Shown in pieces: positions 1-8,229 of a DNA stretch of 8,513 nt (position 1 is its first letter; each line of letters starts with the position of its first letter). The notes below the pieces were generated by a model, which saw only the letters and a list, made by a program, of their open reading frames with translations, was not told where the DNA came from and ran no database searches. The stretch is from the IMG/VR virus record IMGVR_UViG_2563366822_000013. The stretch is one strand, 5' to 3'. Source of the DNA: a virus (lineage: Duplodnaviria; Heunggongvirae; Uroviricota; Caudoviricetes). The position numbers and the translations under genes are program-made.

Positions 1-1053
1 ATGACGTTACCACTAAGAGATTACTATCCTATTGAGCGCGCGGCAAAGTTATTAGACTGCGATATTGATGATCTTATTCATTGGGCTGTGACAGGCTGCA
101 TTCGTATTTGTATAAAAATTGAATCTGCATATGGAATATTAAATATCCCAGATGAAAAAGATGTGGTTAATTTCGATTGTCTGCGTAAGTTTCTGGATTC
201 AGAACCATGTAAATCACGGTTATCTGACCTTGATGCCATTTCAGAAAGGGCGGCAGAACACCATGGTTTTAATTATATAAAAACCAAGTCGAGAATTATA
301 TTTGATTCAATGTGCGAATCTCTAAGTCATTCATATGTAGCGCCCAAATTTGGTGACATAGCAATTGATACTGCATTTGCTTTGTTAAATTATTATAACA
401 GGGGGTTATATTATGGGGAAAATTATCACATATATAGTGTATATCGAATAGCAACGGATGAAAGAGCTGTGGCAGTTGTACCACCAGTATTTAAAGGTAT
501 TCAAGAAAAATACCATAAGTATTTTGTTGAAATAGGCGGCATTTTCGCTTTGGGGGGAAGTTTTTTTGCCAACTATGATTTTAATAAGAAGTTTAAAGCC
601 AACCGAATAATTAATAGCAATATTATAATTGCTTCTGACGTTGATATACATATAGGAGTAATTGTTACTGAGGATGTTTCTTTTGATATTGGTGATTTAT
701 ATATCTTAAAGAGTGATTTTTTAAAAATACAAAATGCTACAAGCTCCAATAGCGAGTTAAGAAAAGATTATGTTAATCCATTGGCAGACACTTTATATTT
801 GTGTGCGGGTAACAATATATTAAGCTCTGAGGATGGAGAGAAAGATATATGCACCAATAAAAACAATATAGAACGATTATCTAAAACAATGAAGGATTTT
901 TTTCGTGCGATGCTTGTTATTCATTATAAAGAACTCGAAAACAATCCGGTAAAACTTGCTGATATATTGACCGCGGAAGCAAAAGAGGCAGGACTCAATA
1001 TGCGCTTTGATAAAAGTACTATATCAAGATGGATTAAGGCATCATCTCAGTAA
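1..1053 (+). CDS. Hypothetical protein, 350 aa, low-GC cargo gene; HTH-like segments at both termini, central domain unrecognised
   Basis: Uninterrupted ORF from ATG at position 1 to TAA at 1051-1053. Visibly AT-rich (roughly 35 percent GC by eye) against about 50 percent for the rest of the window. N-terminal segment IERAAKLLDCDIDDLIHWAVTG and C-terminal segment GLNMRFDKSTISRWIK both have a helix-turn-helix look. No catalytic motif recognised. Start coincides with the window edge, so upstream context is unseen. Confidence 0.6.
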   Translation: MTLPLRDYYPIERAAKLLDCDIDDLIHWAVTGCIRICIKIESAYGILNIPDEKDVVNFDCLRKFLDSEPCKSRLSDLDAISERAAEHHGFNYIKTKSRIIFDSMCESLSHSYVAPKFGDIAIDTAFALLNYYNRGLYYGENYHIYSVYRIATDERAVAVVPPVFKGIQEKYHKYFVEIGGIFALGGSFFANYDFNKKFKANRIINSNIIIASDVDIHIGVIVTEDVSFDIGDLYILKSDFLKIQNATSSNSELRKDYVNPLADTLYLCAGNNILSSEDGEKDICTNKNNIERLSKTMKDFFRAMLVIHYKELENNPVKLADILTAEAKEAGLNMRFDKSTISRWIKASSQ

Positions 1054-1148: not shown

Positions 1149-1469
1149 ATGACTCAATCCGCATTCATTCCACCAACTCCAGAACAGCGCCGCACCATAC
1201 TCGCCGAGTATGGTTTTGACTGCGAAGAACGCATCAGGGAAGAGAAGTGTAAAAAAATGACCACGCTTTCACGCTCCCGGCGCTGGGAACTGGAGAAGAT
1301 CGGTGCTTTTCCTCCCCGTCACTCTTTGGGGCGTTGCTCATGTACCTGGCTGTTAAGTGATGTTTTGTGGTGGCTACGTAATCCGCCAGTTATTGCCAAA
1401 GTGAATAACCCATACGAAAACGCCAAAAAGAAAAGGGAGAGGGAATCCGGTAGCGCCAGAGTTGAATAA
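1149..1469 (+). CDS. alpA: AlpA/Vis-family phage transcriptional regulator (excisionase-like HTH), 106 aa
   Basis: ORF with AGGGGG Shine-Dalgarno 4 nt upstream of ATG 1149. The segment MTTLSRSRRWELEKIGAFPPRHSLGRCSCTWLLSDVLWWL matches the AlpA-family pattern (TGLSRSTIYRL...G.FP.P..LG.R...W.E.DV..WL). An internal ATG at 1257 is an alternative start. Confidence 0.7.
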   Translation: MTQSAFIPPTPEQRRTILAEYGFDCEERIREEKCKKMTTLSRSRRWELEKIGAFPPRHSLGRCSCTWLLSDVLWWLRNPPVIAKVNNPYENAKKKRERESGSARVE

Positions 1470-1602: not shown

Positions 1603-1736
1603 CAACCAGTCAAGGATGTGCATTTAGTGCACCTGAAACCAACAATAAGAAATAATAGGCAGAAATGATTATGGCTTTTTTACTCTTAAAAATCAATCAC
1701 TCAGCGCAATCGCGCCAAAATAATTTGCAATATTGC

Positions 1737-1766
1737 TTGACTCGCTTTTTTGTCATGGCGTATCGT
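1737..1766 (+). promoter_or_regulatory. Putative sigma70 promoter for the downstream operon (-35 TTGACT, 18-bp spacer, -10 TATCGT), overlapped by palindrome GCAATATTGC
   Basis: TTGACT at 1737-1742 and TATCGT at 1761-1766; the perfect 10-bp palindrome GCAATATTGC lies immediately upstream of and overlapping the -35. Sequence-pattern call only. Confidence 0.3.
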
Positions 1767-1793
1767 TTGCCCGCACCTCATAAAACAGGTGCC

Positions 1794-1980
1794 GGGTTTG
1801 ACAGCCTGAATAAATTGGCGGGTAGCCGCTTGTATTCCGTAATGCGGTTTTTTTGTGCCCGTAATACCACCCTTTCCCGTATTATGGCGGGGCGTAATGG
1901 GGGAGCTTTATGCTCGCTGGTTTCCCAATTTGCCAGTCTGTCAACCCTGTTACGTCTCGCCACCACGTTTGACAGCGTTG
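1794..1980 (+). promoter_or_regulatory. Untranslated leader with three mutually complementary segments (A 1794-1818, B 1925-1947, C 1967-1977), analogous to P4 seqA/seqB/seqC immunity elements
   Basis: Segment A GGGTTTGACAGCCTGAATAAATTGG can pair with segment B CCAATTTGCCAGTCTGTCAACCC over 20 bp (one bulge, one mismatch, one small internal loop). Segment C repeats the 10-mer GTTTGACAGC of A and can pair 8 bp with B. A T7 run at 1848-1854 preceded by short GC stems follows A. The region sits between the putative promoter and the first small ORF. Confidence 0.3.
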
Positions 1981-2018
1981 TAGTGAGGCTTCTTAAACTT
2001 GAATTGGGAGCCTTTCAT

Positions 2019-2192
2019 ATGGCTATATCAACACGCCCTGATTTTATCTGGCGCTTTATGCAGTGCCACGGTAAAAATATCCGCCTTCATACCGTTACCG
2101 CTGCCAGTGAGCGCGAAGCGCGCGCCCTGCTTCCGGCATCTCGTCTGGTCTTTGTTGCCCGTATCCGTGTCCGGGAGGCGTGCCATGTTTAA
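2019..2192 (+). CDS. Small protein, 57 aa, possibly Icd-like host cell-division inhibitor (kil analogue); first gene of the coupled operon
   Basis: GGGAG Shine-Dalgarno at 2006-2010, 8 nt before ATG 2019. Sequence MAISTRPDFIWRF...TVTAASEREARALLPASRLVFVARIRV resembles, from memory only, small Icd-like proteins of P4-like prophages. The 175-aa ORF from 1665 in the track is rejected as read-through of the leader. Confidence 0.45.
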   Translation: MAISTRPDFIWRFMQCHGKNIRLHTVTAASEREARALLPASRLVFVARIRVREACHV

Positions 2193-2840: not shown

Positions 2841-3146
2841 ATGTCTGAAAATCAGAATGTCCGCAATATATACAAAAAAGAATACGCTGGCTTTTTCACA
2901 GAAGATTCCATTGGCAGTCTTGAGGATGTAATAAATGTTATTGCTCTTTTTTCAGCATTGACAGGTGAAATTAATACCAAAGAACGAATTACTGTACAAA
3001 GCGATGAAATGGAATCATTAACTAACATTCTTTATCGGGAATTACGAGCGATTAAATCAGGAATGCATCTTTCTGGCGGGATTTTTTCATGGCACAAAGC
3101 TGAAGCCGCAGGGATTGCTCGGAAACAAGAAGTAACGAGTAATTAA
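2841..3146 (+). CDS. Hypothetical protein, 101 aa, AT-rich
   Basis: GGGGAG Shine-Dalgarno at 2830-2835 and ATG at 2841. Composition (roughly 38 percent GC by eye) is lower than flanking genes. No recognisable motif. Confidence 0.55.
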   Translation: MSENQNVRNIYKKEYAGFFTEDSIGSLEDVINVIALFSALTGEINTKERITVQSDEMESLTNILYRELRAIKSGMHLSGGIFSWHKAEAAGIARKQEVTSN

Positions 3147-3152
3147 TAAAAA

Positions 3153-3177
3153 CCCCACTGCAAAAGGTGCAGTGGGG
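3153..3177 (-). terminator. Perfect 10-bp hairpin (CCCCACTGCA / TGCAGTGGGG, loop AAAGG) with terminator geometry for the minus strand, immediately upstream of the primase start
   Basis: On the plus strand the hairpin is preceded by an A-run and followed by a G-run, so it is not a plus-strand terminator. On the minus strand it is followed by TTTTTATTAATT. It contains the GTG at 3167 that the ORF track used as a start. Confidence 0.35.
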
Positions 3178-3190
3178 GGGGGATTTATAT

Positions 3191-5860
3191 ATGAAACACA
3201 ACACCAGAAAAGAGATTATTAACCGTCTCATCCGTGATTACAATTTTAAAGAAGAAAATAATTATCTTCGCTATGGTGTTTGTCCGCAATGTGGAAAGAA
3301 AGAGCTGTTTACCAGCCTTGAAAGGCCGTACATCGTACACTGTGGGCGCGAAAATAAATGCGGTACAGACCTGCTGACCAAAGAACTTTACCCGGATGTG
3401 TTTTCATCATGGTCAGATCGCTATATCAGCACGAAAGACGAGCCATATGCAGCGGCGGCAGCTTACCTTCAGGAGGCGCGCAATATTGCTGTGGAGCCAC
3501 TGAAGGGGGCATTTACTCAGGAGCGATACCAGGACAAGGAAAACGGCGAACAGGCCGCTACTGTGCGTTTTACGCTGGCTGACGGCGTGTGGTGGGAGCG
3601 CATCATAGACCGACCGGAACGCTTCGCTCGCAAGGCGAATTTTTCCGGCAGCTACAAGGGGTTGTGGTGGGCTTATCCGGGAGCGGATTTAAGCAAGGCC
3701 AAAGAAATCTGGATTTGTGAGGGTATCTTTGATGCCATCAGCCTTAACCAGAATGGCATTGCGGCCGTTTCTGTCATGTCTGCCGTAAACTACCCGGATA
3801 AGGCGCTGGAAGAACTGGCGAAGCTGTGCGGTGATACCCCCCGTCCGGTTATCGTGTGGGCGCTGGATAACGGGCGTGCGGGTGAGCGTTACGCGAAAAA
3901 ACATGCAGAACGCAGTGCCGAAGATGGCTGGAGAACGGCAGCGGCGTTACCGGGTGAAAACAACAATAAACGCGACTGGAATGATTTACACATCGCCGGA
4001 AAGCTGCGTGGCCATGATGTGAAAAGATACCGCTATTACGGTGATTTATTGCTGGCGAAATCTCCAAGAGATAAGGCGCTAATAATGTTTTCCTTTCGTG
4101 AGCGAAAGGAATTTCATTTTACTTTTGATAACCGTGTTTTCTGGTTCAAGCTGGATATTGAGCGCCATATGAAGGCTGTTGAGCGTGTCATTAATGAGCG
4201 AAATGTTGACGAAGATGAAGCGCGAAAAATTGCACTTAAGGAATCCGGTGCAGTAAAAGAAATCGCAAACTGTAACCCAGCGCCGCTTTATTACATTCGA
4301 AACAATGACACGGATGAAGCATGGTATTACTTCCGCGTTACGTTCCCGGATGGCGCTACGGTAAAAAACACCTTTACATCAGGACAATTAACATCCTCAT
4401 CTGAATTTAAAAAACGCCTGTTACATGTGGCAAAAGGCGGCATTTATACCGGAACGACTACGCAGCTTGACGCATTAATAAAAAATGACCTTCCCGCAAT
4501 AAAAGAGGTTATTGGTCAGGATTTTATCGGATACAACAAGGCCATTGGGGCATGGCTGTTTAATGATATTGCTGTTTACAGGGGTAAAACTTATGAAATC
4601 AATGACGAGGATTATTTTGAAATTGATGGCATAAACGCAAAACCATTAAGCGAAAAACCCACATTACAGATTAACTACAAAAAACCGGATGAATTTACAG
4701 AGTCCTGGGTGGAAGATCTCTGGCTGGCTTTTGGTGAAAAGGGAATTATTACCCTGGCTTTCTGGTTGGGCTCCCTGTTCAGCGAACAAATCCGGGATAA
4801 AGAAGAATCCTTCCCCTTCCTTGAAGTCACCGGGGAGCCCGGAACGGGTAAATCAACACTGATTGATTTTTGCTGGCGGCTGTGCGGTCGTGACAACTAT
4901 GAAGGCGTTGATCCAACCAAAGGATCAGAGGCGGGCTGGAAGCGCACCTTTGGACAGGTCGCCGGATTACCTGTTGTTCTGATTGAAGCGGACCGGGGAG
5001 ACAATGCGCAAAAAAGAGGTGCGTTTGACTTCGATAACCTGAAAAGTCTCTATAACGGCGGTGGTATCGGCGTTCGTGGTGTTAAGGCCAACAATAACAA
5101 CACCTATGATCCGGATTTTAAGGGCGCCATCGTGATTGCGCAGAATGCGCGGGTAAACGCCTCTCCGGCAATTATTGAGCGCCTGATACGCATATACACC
5201 GATAAAAAACGCCATTCACCTGATACCCGCCTGGCGGCGAGACGGCTGGAACTTTACCCCGTCGAGAAGGTATCTGGGTTTATTCACCGGGCGGTAAGTC
5301 AGGAACGGGCGATTATGCAAACGTTCCTGGAAGTATCTCCAGCTGAAACGGAACGCCTTTGCGGATGCGAAAATATTCGCCATCCCCGCATCGCCAAAAA
5401 TCACGCACAACTTATCGCGCTGGTCAGGGCGCTGAAATGCGTTATTGATATCCCGGATGAATGGCTTGATGCCACATGTCTGGAGCTGGAACAAATGGCA
5501 ACAGCACAGGTTAAAGCGGCGGCGGCTGACTTGCCGGAAGTGATGGAGTTCTGGGAGGCGTTCGACTTCCTGGACGGCATAACAAAATACGGCGTAAACC
5601 ACTACGGCAAGGGATGCCGCGAAGGGATTGCTATCAGTATTCCGCAGCTGGCACAGGCTGCCGCCATTCACCGCGTGGAGATCCGAACCGATCGCGAAAT
5701 GATTGAGTTGCTCGGAGCCGGACGTTCCCGACCTTTGACAGGCCGCAAAACCATTCGTAGTGAGGTGTCCAGACAGGCAAACGCCGGAAAAGGAGTAGCC
5801 GAAGCCAGAGAACCTGAAGTACTGAAATGCCGGATATTCAGTTACAAGGAGGGGGCTTAA
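3191..5860 (+). CDS. Bifunctional replication primase-helicase (P4 alpha-like): N-terminal zinc-binding motif, TOPRIM primase domain, P-loop NTPase helicase; 889 aa
   Basis: Cys cluster CPQCGKK...HCGRENKCG from nt 3281; TOPRIM glutamate in IWICEGIFDA (E codon 3719-3721) and acidic motif VWALDNGRAGE; Walker A GEPGTGKST (4832-4858), Walker B VVLIEAD, and a downstream IAQN motif. Start set at ATG 3191 rather than GTG 3167, which lies inside the upstream hairpin. Confidence 0.9.
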   Translation: MKHNTRKEIINRLIRDYNFKEENNYLRYGVCPQCGKKELFTSLERPYIVHCGRENKCGTDLLTKELYPDVFSSWSDRYISTKDEPYAAAAAYLQEARNIAVEPLKGAFTQERYQDKENGEQAATVRFTLADGVWWERIIDRPERFARKANFSGSYKGLWWAYPGADLSKAKEIWICEGIFDAISLNQNGIAAVSVMSAVNYPDKALEELAKLCGDTPRPVIVWALDNGRAGERYAKKHAERSAEDGWRTAAALPGENNNKRDWNDLHIAGKLRGHDVKRYRYYGDLLLAKSPRDKALIMFSFRERKEFHFTFDNRVFWFKLDIERHMKAVERVINERNVDEDEARKIALKESGAVKEIANCNPAPLYYIRNNDTDEAWYYFRVTFPDGATVKNTFTSGQLTSSSEFKKRLLHVAKGGIYTGTTTQLDALIKNDLPAIKEVIGQDFIGYNKAIGAWLFNDIAVYRGKTYEINDEDYFEIDGINAKPLSEKPTLQINYKKPDEFTESWVEDLWLAFGEKGIITLAFWLGSLFSEQIRDKEESFPFLEVTGEPGTGKSTLIDFCWRLCGRDNYEGVDPTKGSEAGWKRTFGQVAGLPVVLIEADRGDNAQKRGAFDFDNLKSLYNGGGIGVRGVKANNNNTYDPDFKGAIVIAQNARVNASPAIIERLIRIYTDKKRHSPDTRLAARRLELYPVEKVSGFIHRAVSQERAIMQTFLEVSPAETERLCGCENIRHPRIAKNHAQLIALVRALKCVIDIPDEWLDATCLELEQMATAQVKAAAADLPEVMEFWEAFDFLDGITKYGVNHYGKGCREGIAISIPQLAQAAAIHRVEIRTDREMIELLGAGRSRPLTGRKTIRSEVSRQANAGKGVAEAREPEVLKCRIFSYKEGA

Positions 5861-5862
5861 AC

Positions 5863-6867
5863 ATGCCGATCAGAAAGCTGGATGATGGGCGATGGTTGCT
5901 CGATATCAGGCCATGCGGACGTAAAGGAAAGCGCGTCAGAAGAATATTTGACAGAAAATCGATAGCTGTAGCAACTGAACGGTACATCATAGCGAACGCC
6001 GAAAAACGCGAGTTTATACAGGGCTACCGCGACCGGAGAACCCTCAGCGATTTACTGGAGTTGTGGTGGGTTTATCACGGTCAGCACAGGCGAAAGGCAG
6101 GCACAGATAAACAGCAGCTTGGCAAAATCATTAATGAGCTTGGAGCTGACATGTTTGCGGTAGAGCTCGACAAATTAAAAATCATTGCATGGCGATCGCA
6201 GAAAATTGCGGAAGGGCTAAAGCCGTCCTCAGCAAACAGATATATGAACAGATTATCAGGGATGTTTACAACCCTGAAAAAGATCGGTTTGTGGGATGCA
6301 GAACATCCTGTTCGCGGTATTCCTGTTCTTTACGTAAAGCAGCGAGAGATGGCCTTTTTATCAAAAAACGAGGTCACATTGTTGCTTGACAGACTGAATG
6401 GAGATCAACGAAGGGTTGCGCTCTTATGTCTTTGCACCGGAGCTCGCTGGAGTGAAGCCAGCAGATTACACGGAGAGCAAATAGTTCATAACAGAATCAC
6501 GTTTCTGGAAACCAAAAACGGCAGGAAAAGAACGGTGCCCGTGTCGCAGGAGATATGCAATATCGTAAAAACAAAAGAAACCGGGCGACTGTTTGATGTG
6601 AAGTACAGAGAGTTTTGCCGGGCATTAAAAAAAATAAAACCCGATTTACCGAGGGGGCAGGCTGCGCATGTATTGCGGCATACATTCGCCAGTCACTTTG
6701 TGATGAACGGTGGCAACATTCTTGCGCTACAAAAAATCCTTGGGCATGCGACAATTCAGCAGACTATGGCATACGCACATTTTGCACCGGATTATCTGGC
6801 AGATGCCATGAGATTTAACCCGGTAGCCAACATAGTGATCACCGAAGAAAAAGAGCCAGCAGAGTAA
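5863..6867 (+). CDS. int: Tyrosine recombinase / phage integrase, P2-type; 334 aa
   Basis: AAGGAGGGGG Shine-Dalgarno embedded in the primase 3-prime end; ATG 5863 lies 2 nt after the primase stop. N-terminus MPIRKLDDGRWLLDIRPCGRKGKR resembles P2-family integrases. Box I TGARWSEA and box II HVLRHTFASHF...LGHATIQQTMAYAHF with the catalytic Tyr codon at 6772-6774. Confidence 0.93.
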   Translation: MPIRKLDDGRWLLDIRPCGRKGKRVRRIFDRKSIAVATERYIIANAEKREFIQGYRDRRTLSDLLELWWVYHGQHRRKAGTDKQQLGKIINELGADMFAVELDKLKIIAWRSQKIAEGLKPSSANRYMNRLSGMFTTLKKIGLWDAEHPVRGIPVLYVKQREMAFLSKNEVTLLLDRLNGDQRRVALLCLCTGARWSEASRLHGEQIVHNRITFLETKNGRKRTVPVSQEICNIVKTKETGRLFDVKYREFCRALKKIKPDLPRGQAAHVLRHTFASHFVMNGGNILALQKILGHATIQQTMAYAHFAPDYLADAMRFNPVANIVITEEKEPAE

Positions 6868-6896
6868 CCCGCAGAACGCTACATTCACAGCAAAAG

Positions 6897-6922
6897 AGGT
6901 CAGTTTCCCGCTGACCTTTTTT
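6897..6922 (+). terminator. Rho-independent terminator ending the primase-integrase operon
   Basis: Stem AGGTCAG (6897-6903) / CTGACCT (6911-6917), loop TTTCCCG, followed by a T-run to 6922; begins 30 nt after the integrase stop. Confidence 0.65.
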
Positions 6923-7114
6923 GTTGGCCAGAACCAACGGTAACGGCAATGCAATGGTGGCCATATTGCAGTGGTGCCGCCATCAATTTTTTGCCCCCCT
7001 GAATATCAGAAAGAGTCAAATAATGACGAGATACATTTTAATCACAGAGAGTTAATGAGAATAATACAGAGTAAGTGAGTTTAATTAACATTTTAAAGGG
7101 TCGCGCTAAAGTTT

Positions 7115-7434
7115 GGGGGGGGATGCGCAAAGCGGTTACAACGGTTACAAATTTAGAATTACTTATTTTTGTATTATATATCAATATATTATAACTGGTC
7201 GGATGAGTTACAAAAGCGGTTACAACGCGGTTACATGTAACCGTTTTGTTAGGTTACAGGCGGTTACAGGTTAAGTTTTTAATTGATTGATAATAAAGTG
7301 CTTTTTGAAACCTGTAACCGTTGTAACCGCAGTGTAACCGCAAAGCGGTTACAAACAATATCCATTAAAATCATGTTGTTAAGTGGTGTTTTTGACTGTT
7401 GTAACCGTTGTAACCGCTTTGCGCACCCCCCACC
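7115..7434. repeat. Array of 13 copies of (GC)GGTTACA / TGTAACC(GC), 7 forward and 6 reverse, bounded by 36-bp imperfect inverted repeats; candidate replication iterons or integrase arm-type sites
   Basis: Forward copies start at 7134, 7143, 7218, 7229, 7252, 7262 and 7347; reverse copies at 7236, 7313, 7322, 7333, 7400 and 7409; a degenerate AGTTACA at 7206. Copies are mostly paired at 9-11 bp spacing. Perfect palindromes CGGTTACATGTAACCG (7228-7243) and TGTAACCGC-AAA-GCGGTTACA (7333-7353). Outer arms GGGGGGGGATGCGCAAAGCGGTTACAACGGTTACAA (7115-7150) and its near-exact inverted copy (7399-7434). An AT-rich tract lies at 7151-7200. Confidence 0.75.
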
Positions 7435-7658
7435 GGATTATGAGGCAGAGCCCCAAAACAACTGGCCTGACCTCTAACAAAAATGCAACATCAGTCATTG
7501 ATTTTTTGGGGGCTGTCAGTCACGGGGAGTTGCCCTGTTGTTTGGCAGAAAAATGAAGTATGTACATGCGCGGCGGGGATGGTAAAAAACGTAATACACG
7601 CGGCGCAGTTGCCATAAAAAATCGCTCAAAAGCACTCTTTTTGACGCTATTGTTCATC

Positions 7659-7685
7659 TGCACAAAAGTGCACAAATTTGCACAA
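7659..7685 (+). repeat. Three direct TGCACAA repeats at exactly 10-bp spacing, with a fourth copy at 7751-7757; candidate regulator binding sites
   Basis: TGCACAAAAG / TGCACAAATT / TGCACAATTT at 7659, 7669 and 7679, then GTGCGTGCACAAAAAAC with TGCACAA at 7751-7757, in a region without credible coding potential. Confidence 0.4.
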
Positions 7686-7983
7686 TTTTTTAGAGTAACT
7701 TTTTGCCCATCCGGCCCAGTACTGGCGCGCCCGGAGGGCGATTTCGTGCGTGCACAAAAAACGGTGAGTTTTTCGCGCGCAGGTGACGGGGGAACAGCAC
7801 GCGTTTCAGGGGGTAAATTACATTTTCGCTAAAGACTGCGGGAATGCCTGACCGGATTAGTTTTATCGCCAGCCAGAGCCGTTCTTATGGCAAGAGAGAA
7901 CTGATACGGGGAATGTGAGGAGTGAGCATGGAAACTGTGTGCCTGCGCGTAATACGCGGCGACCGTCGCGGATTTATTTGATA

Positions 7984-8012
7984 CAGCCAGAGGGGGCGGC
8001 AGAAGATATAAT
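7984..8012 (+). promoter_or_regulatory. Putative promoter of the ogr-like gene: consensus -10 TATAAT with no good -35
   Basis: TATAAT at 8007-8012, 35 nt upstream of the ATG, with Shine-Dalgarno AAGAGGAG at 8033-8040. The sequence at the expected -35 position is a poor match, suggesting possible activator dependence. Confidence 0.25.
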
Positions 8013-8046
8013 AGGTCAAATTTCACACCAGTAAGAGGAGCGTGAT

Positions 8047-8229
8047 ATGTCTTTCCCTTGCCCGGCCTGTGGCGCTTCAGCCCGCACCCGTGGTCGTTCG
8101 TTGGAAGAACACGAACAAAATATCTACAAAACGTATTACCAGTGCAATAATATTGAGTGTGGGGCCTGTTTTTGTACGCTTGAGTCGTTTGTACGCATTA
8201 CTAAGCGCAGGAAGTCGAAAACTTCATAG
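8047..8229 (+). CDS. ogr: Ogr/Delta-family zinc-finger late-gene transcriptional activator, 60 aa
   Basis: Strong Shine-Dalgarno and ATG 8047. Protein MSFPCPACGASARTRGR...YYQCNNIECGACFCTLESF carries the CxxC...CxxxxC zinc finger and the surrounding pattern of P2 Ogr (CPLC...YHQCQNVNCSATF.TYES). Confidence 0.8.
   Translation: MSFPCPACGASARTRGRSLEEHEQNIYKTYYQCNNIECGACFCTLESFVRITKRRKSKTS

Follow-up and report, generated by a model that had tools for sequence, protein, structure and literature searches.

Phage satellites hijack the capsids, packaging, late transcription and repression of their helper phages, and P4 is one of the closest known systems to the element studied here. The element was analyzed in an 8,513-nucleotide (nt) stretch of viral DNA (IMG/VR record IMGVR_UViG_2563366822_000013; "the window" below means this whole stretch), which reads as the central part of a satellite, ~13 kb long, that depends on P2-family phages, and in which an integrase gene, int, directly follows a primase-helicase gene. 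Like P4, it is a small integrative element with a P4-type integrase at its border, an AlpA regulator, an Ogr/Delta activator, a primase-helicase next to an iteron origin, a helper-like cos region and, at one end, toxin-antitoxin cargo. It differs from P4 in having a second integrase, which is of the helper type, whereas the single integrase of P4 follows alpha after a terminator, crr and attP. Relatives of the satellite also carry a homologue of the P2-family major capsid protein, which is outside the P4 paradigm. An integrase beside alpha occurs in less than 1% of P4-like elements, and De Sousa and Rocha blamed neighboring mobile elements for such cases (PMC8628076).

The second integrase resembles those of P2 and HP1 in its length, in its Int_N and catalytic domains and in the residues R, K, H-x-x-R, H and Y. 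Unlike them, it is encoded outside a phage, away from C and Cox, without an attP and within a primase operon. In the four phage and prophage ints read, the 3' end encodes the protein's tail and also carries the arm repeats, whereas the satellite int ends in a tail of its own followed by a terminator. In PLE of Vibrio cholerae and the phage ICP1, site-specific recombination of the satellite is likewise coupled to that of the helper; there, a protein of the helper directs the PLE integrase, whereas here the satellite carries a copy of the helper integrase. Satellites with a second integrase of the helper type were not described anywhere in the searchable literature, later satellite surveys included. 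We propose, with a probability of roughly 0.45, that the satellite supplies this helper-type Int in trans to act on the att sites of its helper.

The initial annotation, which was made from the letters of the window, had called the integrase P2-family and not P4-type, and this assignment proved correct. The best matches of Int among solved structures are the P2 integrase (5c6k, expectation value (E) 1e-79; also 5dor) and the HP1 Int (1aih, E 9e-48), and its Pfam domains are PF24624 (Int_N, E 3e-23) and PF00589 (Phage_integrase, E 2e-19). It has no significant BLASTP similarity to P4 Int and no Pfam match to Arm-DNA-bind_3 (DUF4102), the feature of P4-type enzymes. In tblastn searches, Int is about 52% identical in amino acids (aa) to the Ints of P2-like phages. 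With the Int of the P88-like phage Chuche, identity is 82.6% for the protein and 74.5% for the DNA, and the int genes of P884B11, PhiR44_2 and Shae_phiSM also show 74.2-74.5% DNA identity. P884B11, a relative of the Chuche int at the DNA level, belongs to Xuanwuvirus, the P88 genus of Peduoviridae. The residues R195, K218, H269, R272, H295 and Y304 are invariant in an alignment of satellite and phage Ints, and the gene is predicted to encode a catalytically intact tyrosine recombinase of the P2/P88 type.

The primase-helicase open reading frame (ORF) opens with an ATG at position 3191 (MKHNTRKE...) on the plus strand. Only the two nucleotides AC (5861-5862) separate its TAA stop (5858-5860) from the ATG of int (5863-5865), and the Shine-Dalgarno sequence of int lies 10 nt 5' of this ATG, within the primase coding sequence. 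A second in-frame ATG is present upstream at 5827; the start at 5863 is favored, since MPIRKLDDGR aligns with the N-terminus of all P2-family Ints, and the PGAP/NCBI annotation of relatives ~96.6% identical uses the same start. This junction had been noticed in the initial annotation, and it was found again in the relatives, which are cited below by locus number. The spacing given by PGAP is the same in L001, L006, L016 and L019, the pattern TAA-NN-ATG with an upstream AAGGAG is common to E. coli relatives (88-97% identical) and a Yersinia satellite, and AAGGAG is retained in every relative, including those with other int alleles. In L023, an element with a third int allele, the stop and start overlap as ATGA. 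A stop and a start a few nucleotides apart with the Shine-Dalgarno sequence in the upstream gene are the anatomy of a coupled gene pair, and it is kept or re-created in the relatives, suggesting translational coupling of int to the primase-helicase gene. The junction itself showed no significant RNA structure (z -1.3). In strain STEC388 (L015:11690-11705), a 1-nt deletion in the G-run of the int ribosome-binding site shifts the primase frame into an 11-nt overlap with int and leaves Int intact.

One strong hairpin follows int, in agreement with the single terminator described earlier, and it is kept in relatives. A promoter of its own for int had been named as an observation that would speak against co-expression with the primase; a consensus scan revealed no sigma-70-like promoter on the plus strand between 1767 and 7084. 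A second strong hairpin, with a 10-bp stem (CCCCACTGCA...TGCAGTGGGG), lies at 3153-3177, directly 5' of the primase ATG, in the 44 nt that separate it from the 101-aa ORF. It was scored as a minus-strand terminator by the scan; alternatively, it could regulate expression of the primase and int on the plus strand.

The element itself was placed by comparison with bacterial genomes. The window is 96.7% identical to chromosomal islands of E. coli, and the primase-int region was matched in 70 of 5,426 complete E. coli genomes, 58 of which hold at least 80% of the region. In strain JP538 (L001), the island is ~13 kb long, lies between gcd and hpt and contains, in this order, a 399-aa tyrosine recombinase, a 350-aa ORF, AlpA, an Icd-like protein, small ORFs, the primase, int, Ogr/Delta, a 236-aa ORF, a P2-family major capsid homologue and MazEF. 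The AlpA and Ogr/Delta genes that had been recognized from the window are confirmed by Pfam, and the earlier view of the element as a satellite is supported. The domains of the 399-aa protein of L001 (Arm-DNA-bind_3, Phage_int_M and Phage_integrase) mark it as a P4-type integrase. Across this border, four close relatives inserted at hpt were read; in all of them this integrase ends 16 nt before the position of the first base of the window, and it is 98-100% identical among the four. For the window's own element its presence is predicted from relatives with 92.7-96.7% identity to the window.

The element sits in the 5' end of hpt. The core TGTAGAAGTAATG, which is the start of hpt, is duplicated at both ends of the element (10597-10626 and 23559-23582 in L001), and paired GTGTATCAAT arm repeats adjoin both ends (10748-10775 and 23470-23497). 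Since the insertion duplicates the hpt start, the intact hpt at the right end is fed by satellite sequence, with MazEF immediately upstream. Since the P4-type border integrase has its own duplicated core and arm repeats, it accounts for the insertion at hpt.

These results bear on the model in the initial annotation, in which the P2-type Int is the satellite's own integrase and replication and integration are co-expressed. The model fits an intact integrase in a mobile element, it fits the circular map of P4, where int likewise lies 3' of alpha, and of the integrases in a Salmonella element (L012), the P2-type one is encoded closest to the ileX tRNA. However, the insertions at hpt and at argW are explained by a P4-type border integrase with a duplicated core and arm repeats, and the three int alleles described below are exchanged at hpt without a change of insertion site. 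The border integrase was missed at first because its gene lies outside the window. Since it has its own att site and the P2-type int is without arms or core, co-expression of replication and integration is unlikely; we regard the model as very improbable overall and, for the lineage of the window, as largely refuted. The contrast drawn earlier with P4 stood in part: the P4 integrase is of another type and is separated from alpha by intervening elements, but it does lie 3' of alpha on the same strand.

The absence of att sites beside the P2-type int was established by comparison with phages. In four phage or prophage int genes (Chuche, 569R5, an E. coli prophage and a Salmonella prophage), two direct arm repeats were found at the 3' end, with the variants TGTCCAC, TGTCCAT and TGACCAC, which are the complement of the P2-type Int arm consensus tgTGGaCa (PMC3448106). 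Chuche has a second arm pair (P') ~270 bp downstream. TGTCCAC has 0 occurrences in the window, hpt-type elements contain no tandem tgTGGaCa pairs even with mismatches allowed, and 24-mers of the Chuche attP have no core-like match in the element above shuffled sequence; a helper-type attP on the satellite was rejected on these grounds. The phage homologues lie in a Cox-C-int arrangement, whereas the satellite int is not in an int-C-cox module. No element boundary lies beside it at any E. coli locus.

Two further candidate sites were tried and rejected. The GGTTACA repeats were considered as Int arm sites, but the same iteron accompanies alleles A and B and the Yersinia allele, and the iteron differs between types of replication protein (GGTGATACA, GGGGAACA and GGTAGATAA) but not between Int alleles. 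The inverted repeat at 6947-6973, the only one 3' of int, was considered as a core site, and it is identical in elements with alleles A and B. Outside the hpt-type elements, a tandem TGTGGACA pair with the exact P2-type Int arm consensus and 11-bp spacing was observed in E. coli and Yersinia satellites (L006:6176-6200, L017:1750-1774 and L019:2054-2080). It lies in a hairpin with a T-run just 3' of the argW-type border integrase gene, shows compensatory changes in the stem and moves as part of the border-integrase module; hpt-type elements, the window included, lack it.

At least three int alleles occur on nearly the same E. coli satellite backbone. Allele A, that of the window, is closest to the Int of Chuche as given above. 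Allele B (L006 and L016) shares 54% identity with A but 87.5% with the Int common to vB_EcoM-569R5, 705R2 and an Entero_P88 record, and allele C (L023) is 77% identical to the Int of phage P88. For each allele the next-best phage matches are at 52-58%. The nearest known relatives of the three alleles are thus different members of the P88-like group. The same group holds the only phages that match the cos region of the satellite, and the helpers are most likely P88-like Xuanwuvirus. Elements at hpt carry alleles A, B and C alike, with the insertion site unchanged.

The exchange of int can be traced in pairs of closely related sequences. Between L023 and L001, identity is 96.1% on the primase side, as far as a point 8 nt short of the primase stop, and 99.1% on the other side, beginning ~220 nt ahead of the int stop, and the ~790-nt int body between these flanks has no detectable similarity; the ATGA overlap of L023 means that tight coupling was kept or re-made despite the swap. 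Allele B and the 569R5 int share 93-98% DNA identity over approximately nt 270-810, which falls to 59-73% toward either end. In Salmonella, a satellite int and a prophage int agree in 87-99% of their DNA, the last 100 nt excepted. Allele A and phage ints share 62-81% along the whole length, which indicates no recent import. In a tree of Int bodies, sequences with the satellite tail are polyphyletic and interleaved with phage Ints in approximately eight to nine places. Hence, the comparisons indicate that int has been exchanged with helper phages repeatedly and, for some lineages, recently. Through all of these exchanges int retained its satellite-specific 3' end. The specificity-determining Int body swaps as a cassette without other changes in the satellite, and it matches the range of Ints in the helper genus; the att sites of the helper are therefore its most likely substrates.

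The same exchanges argue against a housekeeping recombinase that, comparable to Cre/lox or Xer/dif, would resolve multimers into the monomeric circles needed for P2-type cos packaging. P2-type packaging does use monomeric circles, and int adjoins the origin at the end of the replication operon. However, alleles that are only 54% identical, or without detectable DNA similarity, lie in backbones that are 96-99% identical and have no site that co-varies with them; the inverted repeat 3' of int stays the same between A and B elements, and heterobivalent P2-type Ints normally need arm sites, none of which is present. A role in multimer resolution is therefore quite improbable.

The int gene is also kept in satellites that differ in other parts. 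The primase-int pair is kept in ETEC1748 despite another border integrase and another site (argW), and in strain A36 despite a moved capsid module. A protein search with exact look-ups placed Ints with the C-terminal tail LADAM(R/K)FNP(V/I)A... in a satellite context in 9 of 9 cases. In all nine, a replication gene lies 5' of the Int gene and the element encodes AlpA and Ogr/Delta, and a P4-type border integrase was present in eight of the nine contigs, which is every one read to that end. Ints with the phage tail LQDAVALNPL.GG..VH, in comparison, were in Cox-C-int-att prophages in 3 of 3 cases; thus the tail told satellite from phage context in all 12 sequences checked. Three unrelated kinds of replication protein precede the Ints with the satellite tail. 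The Toprim_2 type of the window, with the 2-nt gap to int, was found in E. coli and Yersinia. The Zn_Ribbon_Prim/Toprim_3/DUF927 type was found in E. coli, where the gap is 9 nt, and in Salmonella, where iterons separate the replication gene from int, and the D5_N/DUF5906/Pox_D5 type was found in Salmonella. The P2-type int is a conserved core gene in satellites of E. coli, Salmonella and Yersinia. A scan of genome contigs with the primase gave one locus, and the wider synteny rests on the exact-protein look-ups.

Selection on int was estimated from the ratio of non-synonymous to synonymous substitution rates (dN/dS). Between the window and L001, L004 and L015, dN/dS of int was 0.09-0.10 (35-37 synonymous and 13-14 non-synonymous changes), and between L006 and L016 it was 0.075 (90 synonymous and 32 non-synonymous). 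The dN/dS of the primase was 0.05-0.16, and dS of int equaled dS of the linked primase. Satellite int is under purifying selection. The gene was intact in six of six full-length E. coli copies read codon by codon and in the five further satellite copies that exact protein look-up yielded. The sole damaged copy found was in E. coli K_EC180 (L005:11695-12394), where a deletion from within int to within ogr/delta removed the terminator, the origin iterons and cos; this element is a decayed, immobile copy of an ETEC1748-type satellite.

These data also bear on whether int has any role in the satellite. As a passenger, it would be kept intact by gene conversion from helper ints, or would be mere homology for recombination between satellite and helper, and both the recent conversion tracts with 93-99% DNA identity to phage ints and the polyphyly of the Int bodies suit this explanation. 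It is nevertheless unlikely. Allele A, which shows no recent import, still has a dN/dS of ~0.1 and a dS equal to that of the linked primase, and the copies in E. coli and other satellites are intact apart from the damaged one, whose element has lost its origin and cos. Moreover, the place after the replication gene is kept over three genera and three types of replication protein, and tight start coupling was re-created in allele C as ATGA.

The combination of a helper-type body with a satellite-specific tail, and alleles that track the Int types of the helpers, would also suit interference. The satellite Int with its altered tail would then poison or compete with the helper Int and block helper lysogeny or excision, so that satellite circles alone are packaged, and catalysis would perhaps be dispensable. 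However, the invariance of all six catalytic residues speaks for catalysis. The difference in the tail also has a mechanical cause: the tail codons of the phage gene are the arm sites, and the double crossover stops at the last conserved block. We consider interference rather improbable.

In the mechanism we favor, the satellite would make a helper-type Int together with its replication genes and supply it in trans for the att sites of the helper. As int is the last gene of the replication operon and one terminator follows it, Int would be made when the satellite replicates. Its substrates would be the attL and attR or the attP of the helper, with their tgTGGaCa arms, and not satellite DNA. 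The most plausible purpose would be excision of the helper prophage together with the Cox protein of the helper; in the alternative direction, integration of the helper would be forced or blocked.

Co-residence of satellites and prophages was analyzed in the E. coli genomes. An A-type P88-like prophage was present in 17 of the 70 satellite-bearing genomes, compared with 5.4% of the remainder (Fisher p = 2e-7, not corrected for clonality). Overall, co-residence was enriched 4- to 5-fold, a figure inflated by the clonal sampling, and it lends the proposed helper link weak support. An allele-specific co-residence of satellite and prophage was rejected, since the A-type prophages that were searched for occurred with about a quarter of both the A and the non-A satellite genomes.

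Several points weigh against action of Int on the helper. Co-residence is not allele-specific, and the sampling behind it is clonal. We infer the action on helper att sites solely from the missing cis sites and the tracking of alleles. Allele A has 74% DNA identity to known phage ints, and a common specificity is only presumed. Gene conversion from phage copies could mimic both the tracking of helpers and part of the signal of purifying selection. The TGTGGACA pair leaves room for the P2-type Int to bind satellite DNA, which it may do in argW-type lineages. In the Salmonella element at ileX (L012), either integrase could have made the insertion, the left border being outside the flank read. 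Helper excision is not needed by P4, so the benefit to the satellite is conjectural. With these points in mind, we put forward, more tentatively than the action in trans itself, a wider proposal for Enterobacterales satellites. They would hold a copy of the helper integrase without an att site, wired into the replication operon and repeatedly updated from helper int, and this copy would control excision or integration of the helper prophage.

The features of the window are listed in Table 1.

Table 1. Features located in the 8,513-nt window, with the evidence for each.
Feature	Position	Strand	Evidence
350-aa protein, first satellite gene after the off-window border integrase	1..1053	+	ORF
AlpA-family regulator/excisionase	1149..1469	+	Pfam Phage_AlpA E 3.3e-7; PHROG 2790 E 4.6e-30
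Icd-like protein	1665..2192	+	NCBIfam phage_ICD_like E 3.3e-14; like annotation in relatives
Conserved 101-aa ORF immediately 5' of primase	2841..3146	+	ORF; 101-aa ORF at same place in L017 and L019
Primase-helicase, 889 aa (zinc ribbon, Toprim, P-loop NTPase)	3191..5860	+	PHROG 1139; Pfam Toprim_2
Shine-Dalgarno AAGGAGG of int	5846..5852	+	Sequence; inside primase coding sequence
Stop/start junction TAA-AC-ATG	5858..5865	+	Sequence; 2-nt gap
int, internal P2/HP1-family tyrosine recombinase, 334 aa, allele A	5863..6867	+	Pfam Int_N and Phage_integrase
Intrinsic-terminator-like hairpin, A and T runs on either side, bidirectional	6888..6926	+	-25.2 kcal/mol; z = -5.3 against shuffles
Origin-like iteron array, 13 GGTTACA in both orientations around an AT-rich stretch	7134..7415	.	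~1 copy expected in whole window
cos-region homology to P88-like phages	7658..7824	.	megablast, 83%
Ogr/Delta-type zinc-finger late-gene activator	8047..8229	+	Pfam Ogr_Delta E 2.4e-11

The primase-helicase matches PHROG 1139 ("DNA primase") over its full length (E 4e-298), with a Toprim_2 match in Pfam (E 9.5e-13) and a weak match to DUF5906. It had been described as alpha-like. The order of zinc ribbon, Toprim and P-loop is indeed common to both proteins, but homology to alpha did not hold up: the BLASTP alignment with P4 alpha is confined to the Walker A and Toprim motifs, and Pfam gave no match to Pox_D5 or D5_N. On this comparison, the protein is an analogue of P4 alpha and not a detectable homologue.

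In megablast, no part of the window other than the cos-region segment matched phage records (Entero_P88, vB_EcoM-569R5/705R2 and PhiR44_2, all P88-like), and this segment is probably the cos region, from its position in the matching phage genomes. Within it, GGTGACGGGGGAACAGCAC at 7783-7801 agrees by eye with the P4/P2 cohesive end at 14 of 19 positions. BLASTN of the joined P4 ends against window positions 7501-8046 gave only a chance-level match at ~7568-7579 (E 0.8). A poly-G tract at 7108-7117, just before the first iteron, varies from 8 to 11 G among the window, L001, L006, L015 and L016.

Neither the 350-aa protein nor the 101-aa ORF had a family match in Pfam, PHROG or NCBIfam; in hpt-type relatives, PGAP places a hypothetical protein of 350-354 aa at the position of the former. 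The P2-family major capsid homologue (Pfam Phage_cap_P2, E 2e-72) was observed in five satellites (L001:20679-22660, L016:5472-7410, L012:1999-3877, L017:2611-4515 and L019:2880-4806). It has a ~130-aa N-terminal extension in L001 and is always preceded by an ORF of 236-291 aa without a family match (236 aa in L001). The att-proximal right end is a variable cargo slot, with MazEF in L001, HicAB in L012, Hok in L016, L017 and L019, and PemK with HigBA-like genes in L018, L021 and L022.

The P4-like core of SatelliteFinder consists of int, psu, delta, sid, alpA and epsilon, together with alpha. Matches to delta (PF04606), alpA (PF05930) and an integrase were found. Alpha (PF03288, Pox_D5), psu (PF07455) and epsilon (PF10554) had no match in the window ORFs, from which two of ~60 aa at ~2184-2557 were left out, or in the right-arm ORFs of L001. 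Some Salmonella relatives do have Pox_D5 and Derepression matches. The element works like P4, yet it falls short of the P4-like core-gene definition. Core-gene detectors of the SatelliteFinder type would miss or mis-delimit such satellites, which for this primase type alone means 70 of 5,426 complete E. coli genomes, with Salmonella and Yersinia relatives in addition. The satellite-type C-terminal tail of Int offers a simple marker that distinguishes satellite from phage context.

P2-family prophages are poorly inducible because Int is limiting. If the proposal is true, control of the helper through a copy of its own integrase would be a hijacking mechanism undescribed for any satellite. The takeover of helper site-specific recombination would then be an additional layer of hijacking, relevant to P2-family prophages.

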